IMG/VR virus record: IMGVR_UViG_2698536312_000011
From: a virus
Lineage: Duplodnaviria > Heunggongvirae > Uroviricota > Caudoviricetes
Strand: one strand, 5' to 3'
DNA length: 7,114 nt
Program-made: the position numbers and the translations under genes
In this document: positions 1 through 351 of the stretch, in pieces
How positions within the stretch are numbered: the first letter of the stretch is position 1
Layout of the letters: the number at the start of each line of letters is the position of its first letter
Notes under the pieces: generated by a model
Databases searched by the model: none
What the model saw: only the letters and a program-made list of their open reading frames with translations
Told to the model about the DNA's origin: nothing

Positions 1-219
1 ACACTATCAATAAGTTGGAGTCATTACCCGGTGCGTGAATATGTCGTTCGTCTGCGCCGTTTGGGTAATCATCTACACGAGCAAAATATTTCCCTCGATC
101 AGCTGCAGGACGGTTTCCTTGATGAAATCCTCGCCCCGTGGCTGCCCACCACCAGCACCAACAATTACCGCATTGCGTTACGGAAGTATCAACACTATCA
201 GCGTCAAACGTGTACCTGA
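1..219 (+). CDS. fliZ: 3' portion of flagellar regulator FliZ, 5' end outside the window; ends at in-frame TGA 217-219, but the frame stays open for 15 more codons (LVQKSSSLPASDIY) to TAA 262-264
   Basis: Frame 1 is open from base 1. The translation (...REYVVRLRRLGNHLHEQNISLDQLQDGFLDEILAPWLPTTSTNNYRIALRKYQHYQRQTCT) matches my recollection of the FliZ C-terminal region, and it sits immediately upstream of fliY in the same orientation, as in the fliAZY operon. Not verified by search. Confidence 0.7.
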   Translation, partial: TLSISWSHYPVREYVVRLRRLGNHLHEQNISLDQLQDGFLDEILAPWLPTTSTNNYRIALRKYQHYQRQTCT

Positions 220-351
220 CTTGTGCAGAAATCCTCCAGTCTGCCTGCTTCTGATATATATTAAATAAGAATAAGATGTAGCGGAGTTGTTTTTGTGTTT
301 ACAAACAATGGCTCTACACTGCAAACAGACATAACAACATTCGGGGTGAAT

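Follow-up and report, generated by a model that had tools for sequence, protein, structure and literature searches.

The 3′ remnant of an IS1-split fliZ in Shigella sonnei carries a premature stop codon that probably predates the insertion

Shigella sonnei is a textbook non-motile lineage in which insertion sequences (IS) are known to have eroded the flagellar genes. In E. coli K-12, FliZ (b1921) represses genes globally, in competition with sigma-S RNA polymerase; without the arginine at position 108 (R108) of its recognition helix it neither binds DNA nor represses (Pesavento and Hengge 2012, PMC3367168). The fliZ::IS1 allele of ETEC strain H10407 was reported to be null for FliZ function and to be complemented by K-12 fliZ (Infect Immun 2026, PMC13647256). 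IS-mediated loss of flagella in Shigella forms the wider background (Hawkey et al. 2020, PMC7373316); as at the locus described below, IS elements and point mutations inactivate flagellar genes in a non-motile, host-restricted lineage. That paper contains zero occurrences of fliZ, nothing on S. sonnei fliZ turned up in the literature searched, and the fliZ lesions that we found on record exist only as database annotations.

The DNA analyzed here, referred to as the window, is a stretch of 7,114 bp identical to the entire draft S. sonnei contig CXDB01000179.1 (assembly GCA_001256715.1); its features are collected in Table 1. Because the window is a whole draft contig, it starts inside an IS1 element, the contig start falling within the IS1 terminal inverted repeat. 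We take bases 1-28 (ACACTATCAATAAGTTGGAGTCATTACC) to be the IRL of IS1, and the annotation of an IS1 family transposase then agreed with this assignment. Homology to E. coli (5,379 genomes) begins at base 29 of the window, not at base 1. The original prediction had treated bases 1-264 as fliZ, which holds for 29-264 and fails for the first 28 bases, these being the end of IS1.

Table 1. Position and identity of the features recognized in the 7,114-bp window.
Feature	Position	Strand	Evidence or remarks
IS1 end: terminal inverted repeat, insB stop codon at 11-13	1-28	+	Complete S. sonnei chromosomes have the same IS1 end
Right-hand copy of the 9-bp IS1 target-site duplication, CGGTGCGTG	29-37	+	K-12 fliZ nt 317-325, codons 106-108
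fliZ 3′ remnant, pseudogene fragment (codons 106-183 of a 183-codon gene)	29-264	+	99.4% identity to E. coli fliZ
Premature TGA, fliZ codon 169	217-219	+	Ancestral GGA or AGA; translation and alignment
Another substitution peculiar to the S. sonnei allele	240	+	Silent (AGC to AGT, C replaced by T); none of the six reference alleles in the comparison has it
Ancestral fliZ stop codon TAA	262-264	+	Translation, K-12 comparison
fliZ-tcyJ intergenic region, 87 nt	265-351	+	Identical in K-12, strain 7/2 and S. flexneri (0 mismatches)
tcyJ (fliY), cystine-binding periplasmic protein, intact, 266 aa, 801 nt	352-1152	+	PF00497, E 4.5e-46; annotation
IS630, 1153 bp, transposase ORF 1206-2237	1186-2338	-	TA duplication at 1184-1185 and 2339-2340; DDE_3 and HTH domains
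Lambdoid prophage early-left (pL) region	2341-7114	+	N antiterminator 2769-3152, then cIII, kil, ATPase, anti-RecBCD and ea22-like genes

The interruption is seen in full in complete S. sonnei chromosomes. In one of them (locus L005), an IS1 of 768 bp lies at 9231-9998, with the InsA and InsB genes just upstream of the end that corresponds to window bases 1-28, and the same nine bases, CGGTGCGTG, are found at both ends of the element (9222-10007 including the duplications), as they are in the sister loci. When K-12 fliZ is compared with L005 by BLAST, it aligns in two segments, 1-325 and 317-552, with IS1 between them. A terminal repeat abutting its target, a 9-bp duplication and insA/insB are all present, the window itself holding only the last 28 nt of the element and L005 and the sister loci supplying the rest. 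Six complete chromosomes match window 1-2340 at 99.8-99.96% identity, and in all six IS1 with its duplication splits fliZ; the order in the complete chromosomes is fliC, fliA, fliZ 5′ fragment, IS1, fliZ 3′ fragment, tcyJ, IS630, dcyD. The 5′ fragment encodes 109 amino acids, ending in ...SPGTVRG followed by a stop, and the 3′ fragment 62. Both are named FliZ of Shigella sonnei in the source annotation: the former is found on 745 contigs, and the exact 62-aa product (ORF at window 31-219) in 529 blocks of public assemblies, on 623 contigs. The lesion in fliZ is ordinary pseudogene decay, and hundreds of public assemblies already have both fragments in their annotation.

Orthology of the remnant is apparent from its sequence and position: bases 29-360 show 99.4% identity to E. 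coli fliZ plus tcyJ, and fliA-fliZ-tcyJ synteny is kept. Compared with K-12 fliZ, the remnant is 96.6% identical in DNA over K-12 nt 317-552 and precedes tcyJ by the same 87-nt spacer. However, the K-12 gene is intact, encodes 183 aa and has AGA (Arg) as codon 169, whereas the window lacks the first 105 codons, IS1 interrupts the gene in the genome, and codon 169 reads TGA. The likeness to H10407 extends to the insertion itself, which occupies the same 9-bp target (K-12 nt 317-325), so that the 5′ fragment stops directly behind R108 and the 3′ fragment is detached. Unlike in S. sonnei, the IS1 of H10407 is reversed and lies in a different fliZ allele (7 mismatches in the 236-nt 3′ part) that has GGA at codon 169, hence no premature stop. 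The settings also differ, as H10407 is flagellated and motile, FliZ loss altering flagellin regulation there, whereas the flagellar system of S. sonnei is defunct. The piece of fliZ in the window is the promoterless 3′ remnant of an IS1-split gene.

The position of the insertion bears directly on the protein. In K-12 MG1655, fliZ comprises 552 nt and 183 codons, its product ending in ...QTCTRLVQKSSSLPSSDIY (...QRQTCTRLVQKSSSLPSSDIY). Profile searches place an integrase-type core-binding, DNA-binding domain (PF02899) at residues 90-163 and the TIGR03823 profile at residues 1-167. Since the duplication spans codons 106-108, IS1 interrupts the R108 helix, cutting the DNA-binding domain at this contact residue, and parts the 3′ piece from promoter and start codon. 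PF02899 is split over the two fragments, the window fragment covering profile positions 19-79, and a complete domain with the R108 helix is lacking. Likewise, the 62-aa product scores 88.7 bits against TIGR03823, matching profile positions 107-167 only; this is below the curated cutoff of the equivalog (159.3 bits), the score above which FliZ was considered intact, and compares with 302.2 bits for K-12 FliZ. The uninterrupted 183-codon ORF ending in SDIY is broken twice, by IS1 at codons 106-108 and by TGA at codon 169. Functional FliZ cannot be made in this genome whatever codon 169 reads, and the TGA has no further consequence here.

Translation of window 1-264 in frame 1 gives TLSISWSHYPVREYVV...YQHYQRQTCT, a stop, LVQKSSSLPASDIY and a second stop, the stretch after the TGA thus remaining open in frame up to the ancestral TAA. 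Alignment traces the interruption to a single-base change at window position 217, which is T here, A in K-12, and G (GGA, Gly) in E. coli strain 7/2, in the H10407 / H10407-like record and in S. flexneri, whose representative has GGA at codon 169 and an intact fliZ. All six complete S. sonnei chromosomes read ACC TGA CTT at this site. Among 5,426 complete E. coli genomes, a 30-mer spanning T217 (TGA, majority flank) was found in none, nor was the TGA 30-mer with the K-12 flank, while the GGA control 30-mer with identical flanks was present in 3,414. The substitution is a transversion, G to T (or A to T), with GGA to TGA as the simplest case. These results bear out the original prediction in part. 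It had recognized a point nonsense mutation at 217-219, 15 codons ahead of the normal stop of the 183-aa protein, and had given 87 bp as the fliZ-fliY spacing of K-12; the K-12 gap between fliZ and tcyJ is indeed 87 nt, and not about 132. The prediction erred in the nature of the change: it proposed CGA to TGA, with C expected at position 217 of the reference. CGA is ruled out as ancestral codon, K-12 having A at this position (AGA) and close relatives, along with the majority of complete E. coli genomes counted above, GGA.

The portion removed by the nonsense codon is of uneven conservation. FliZ is 183 aa long and ends in S180-D181-I182-Y183 in 72/72 Enterobacteriaceae species representatives, none of which ends at QTCT; residues 160-179 are hypervariable among these same representatives (residues 160-183 of the remnant correspond to window 190-261). 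The SDIY motif being invariant, truncation at codon 169 removes a conserved tail. This pattern argues that the extreme C-terminus is under purifying selection and that its loss would not be neutral in a live gene; we found no described function for the C-terminal SDIY motif. That the stop truncates FliZ, as originally proposed, is correct in so far as the nonsense codon is real, but this is not a simple truncation, IS1 also splitting the gene at codons 106-108.

Downstream of the intact tcyJ gene, the window continues into IS630, which entered a CTAG within the loop of the terminator hairpin of tcyJ (window 1172-1185; the empty K-12 site reads GGGCGCTTTCACTAGCGCC). The ends of the element, AATAGCTGCGC and GCGCAGCTATT, have TA on each side, against CACTAGCG at the empty K-12 site. 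A length of about 1.15 kb, terminal inverted repeats, a DDE_3 domain (E 9.9e-25) and the TA at CTAG identify it as an IS630 member. The same insertion is found in the complete S. sonnei chromosomes. As a result of the insertion, the terminator between tcyJ and dcyD is split.

Beyond IS630, the lambdoid prophage region sits where dcyD adjoins IS630 in the six complete chromosomes, and it is separate from the fliZ lesion. The IS630-prophage junction itself is real, because sister draft contigs, which begin 34 nt inside the IS630 end, have the same prophage junction (window 2339-2345). The linkage of tcyJ to the prophage across this multicopy 1.15-kb element may be a short-read misjoin or the product of isolate-specific IS630 recombination. 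A probable pL promoter/operator is found at window 2440-2530 (TTGACC, 17-nt spacer, TATCTT, flanked by inverted ATAACTTAT and TAAGTTAT repeats); the predicted region lies just upstream of the N gene, with IS630 about 100-190 nt further upstream.

Flagellar decay extends to fliD, outside the window. In L005 (2789-6147), two inverted IS3-family elements have broken fliD into an N-terminal fragment of 65 aa and a C-terminal one of 143 aa. Beyond these elements, ycgR, emtA and ldcA-like genes are found in place of fliS and fliT, which indicates a probable IS-mediated rearrangement beside fliC. A description of S. sonnei is reportedly in print that matches a fliD split by two inverted IS3-family copies beside fliC. 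The Shigella-like background with a decaying flagellar regulon that had been guessed from the letters alone therefore proved right, the organism being S. sonnei and fliD being split in its complete genomes.

The condition of fliZ can be accounted for by two lesions. One is the single-base transversion at codon 169, which alone would give FliZ(1-168), without the last 15 residues and hence without SDIY. The other, independent, is the 768-bp IS1 with its 9-bp duplication, by which the remainder of the gene is cut off from its promoter, its start codon and residues 1-108. The nonsense mutation would have come first, in an IS-free ancestor that S. sonnei has in common with a closely related E. coli; only afterwards, within S. 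sonnei, would IS1 have entered fliZ, IS630 the tcyJ terminator and IS3-family elements fliD. Window 29-264 is very probably a dead fliZ 3′ remnant with these two independent lesions; of the two, the nonsense mutation, a fixed inherited scar in non-motile S. sonnei, is likely the earlier.

The order of events is suggested by alleles that carry TGA and lack IS1, found by exact look-up of reconstructed proteins (the 168-aa FliZ of the S. sonnei allele). One (L111; contig AAWQUR010000015.1, 3830-9440, of GCA_014955865.1, an assembly under the name E. coli) has a fliZ without interruption that agrees with the IS1-less S. sonnei allele at 552/552 bases, TGA169 and the silent T528 among them. Here, fliD, fliS, fliT, fliC and fliA are all intact, and the IS1, IS630 and IS3-family insertions are all absent; over fliD-tcyJ it is 99.8% identical to S. 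sonnei, whereas identity with other E. coli is 96-98%. This assembly may represent an IS-free line closely related to S. sonnei, and could in principle have acquired the allele through recombination. The other (L113, a single Logan contig from SRR6249369, bounded by IS ends) is 100% identical to S. sonnei on either side of the IS1 site, lacks IS1, and again has a fliZ allele identical to the IS1-less S. sonnei allele at 552/552 bases, TGA included. Formally, L113 could still reflect rare precise IS1 excision or a mixed sample.

Recurrence of each kind of lesion has to be considered as well. TGA at codon 169 is also found in a K-12-like fliZ allele (L120 4001-4507, GCA_013702125.2; L121 969-1475, SRR12323869) that differs from the S. 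sonnei allele at 16 positions, indicating an independent TGA; fliC and fliA are intact in both, and a near-full-length fliD is present in L120 only. Homoplasy is possible for both lesions, because IS1 without TGA (L128, L132; see below) and TGA in the K-12-like allele (L120, L121) recur independently. As the IS1-free carriers of the S. sonnei TGA allele are only two and both kinds of lesion recur elsewhere, we regard precedence of the nonsense mutation over IS1, the parsimonious order, as likely rather than as settled.

A stop codon older than IS1 raises the question of what FliZ(1-168) could do. It might have been a tolerated, or even advantageous, functional variant, true inactivation coming only with IS1. 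The stop falls just beyond the conserved core (TIGR03823 at 1-167, PF02899 at 90-163), into a segment, residues 160-179, that varies highly between species, and TGA at this codon occurs in two independent lineages (L111; L120 and L121) with intact fliC and fliA, and with a fliD that is intact in L111 and nearly full-length in L120. However, the second of these lineages was turned up by a look-up aimed at codon 169 itself, so that its recurrence is no evidence of tolerance. Moreover, the SDIY ending and the 183-aa length are invariant in the species representatives, and the TGA allele is rare outside S. sonnei, being absent from the complete E. coli genomes in both flank backgrounds. On this evidence, a tolerated FliZ(1-168) seems unlikely, though it deserves serious thought.

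The converse order, in which TGA would be secondary neutral decay of the 3′ fragment after IS1 had killed fliZ, we consider distinctly improbable. The two lesions do occur jointly, as fixed changes, in each of the complete S. sonnei chromosomes examined, and a second, silent S. sonnei-specific change (T240) lies 23 nt downstream of the stop, as might be seen in a drifting pseudogene. But window position 240 is fliZ nt 528, in the now untranslated tail, and its T is common to L111 and L113, where the identical allele (TGA and T240) exists without IS1. In addition, two lineage-specific changes in 236 nt are not above the number in the intact neighbor tcyJ (11/801). The preferred reading, with the nonsense mutation first, accommodates the allele of L111 and L113.

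The nine bases CGGTGCGTG (fliZ codons 106-108) have received mobile elements more than once. Besides S. sonnei (window 1-37; L005 9222-10007), IS1 is present there, duplication and orientation being the same, in an E. coli lineage that has diverged (L128, 4222-5007, and L132; GCA_977066885.1 and GCA_054663915.1) that has 15 fliZ differences, GGA at codon 169 and an IS1 copy differing at 9 positions, and, in opposite orientation, in ETEC H10407 (L002, 1747-2532); a Mu-like prophage end lies at fliZ nt 319/320 in L130 (about 4999; GCA_022970655.1). These recurrences were found through a look-up of an ORF starting at V107 and are biased to this site; among complete E. coli genomes, 43-mers spanning the IS1-fliZ junction occur only in H10407 and its duplicate record SEC470. 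The 9 bp of fliZ have been struck independently in at least three or four lineages, H10407 having a published regulatory phenotype. Many 168-aa and 76-79-aa "partial" FliZ entries were discarded as candidates for further truncations or insertions, being contigs that end at polymorphic sites or frameshift-ridden noisy long-read assemblies. One could imagine that CGGTGCGTG is an insertion hot spot at which FliZ loss has been fixed repeatedly in enteric E. coli and Shigella and, with the two independent nonsense mutations at codon 169 also in view, that inactivation of FliZ or loss of SDIY is adaptive in pathogens, and rewiring the choice between motility and sigma-S/curli rather than reflecting passive decay; this we hold to be very doubtful.

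That the stop is a draft-assembly artefact (a sequencing error or a collapsed repeat) is refuted: the window does come from a short-read draft assembly, with multicopy IS elements at its start and along its course, but the same base is found in six complete chromosomes and hundreds of independent assemblies. Recoding of UGA (selenocysteine or programmed read-through), with the full-length tail still made, is equally untenable, having nothing in its favor but the open in-frame continuation to the ancestral stop: the structured element directly 3′ of UGA that marks a recoding site is absent (fold z-score 0.03), 0 Rfam families score above threshold in window 1-2400, the fragment lies downstream of IS1 without a promoter or start of its own, and the ancestral codon was Gly or Arg, not Cys or Sec.

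What the locus adds to the picture of flagellar decay in S. sonnei is that the nonsense mutation in fliZ appears older than IS1 and common to an IS-free E. coli relative with an intact flagellar region. If FliZ loss was selected, reductive evolution in Shigella would be tied to the switch between motility and sigma-S-dependent biofilm formation.
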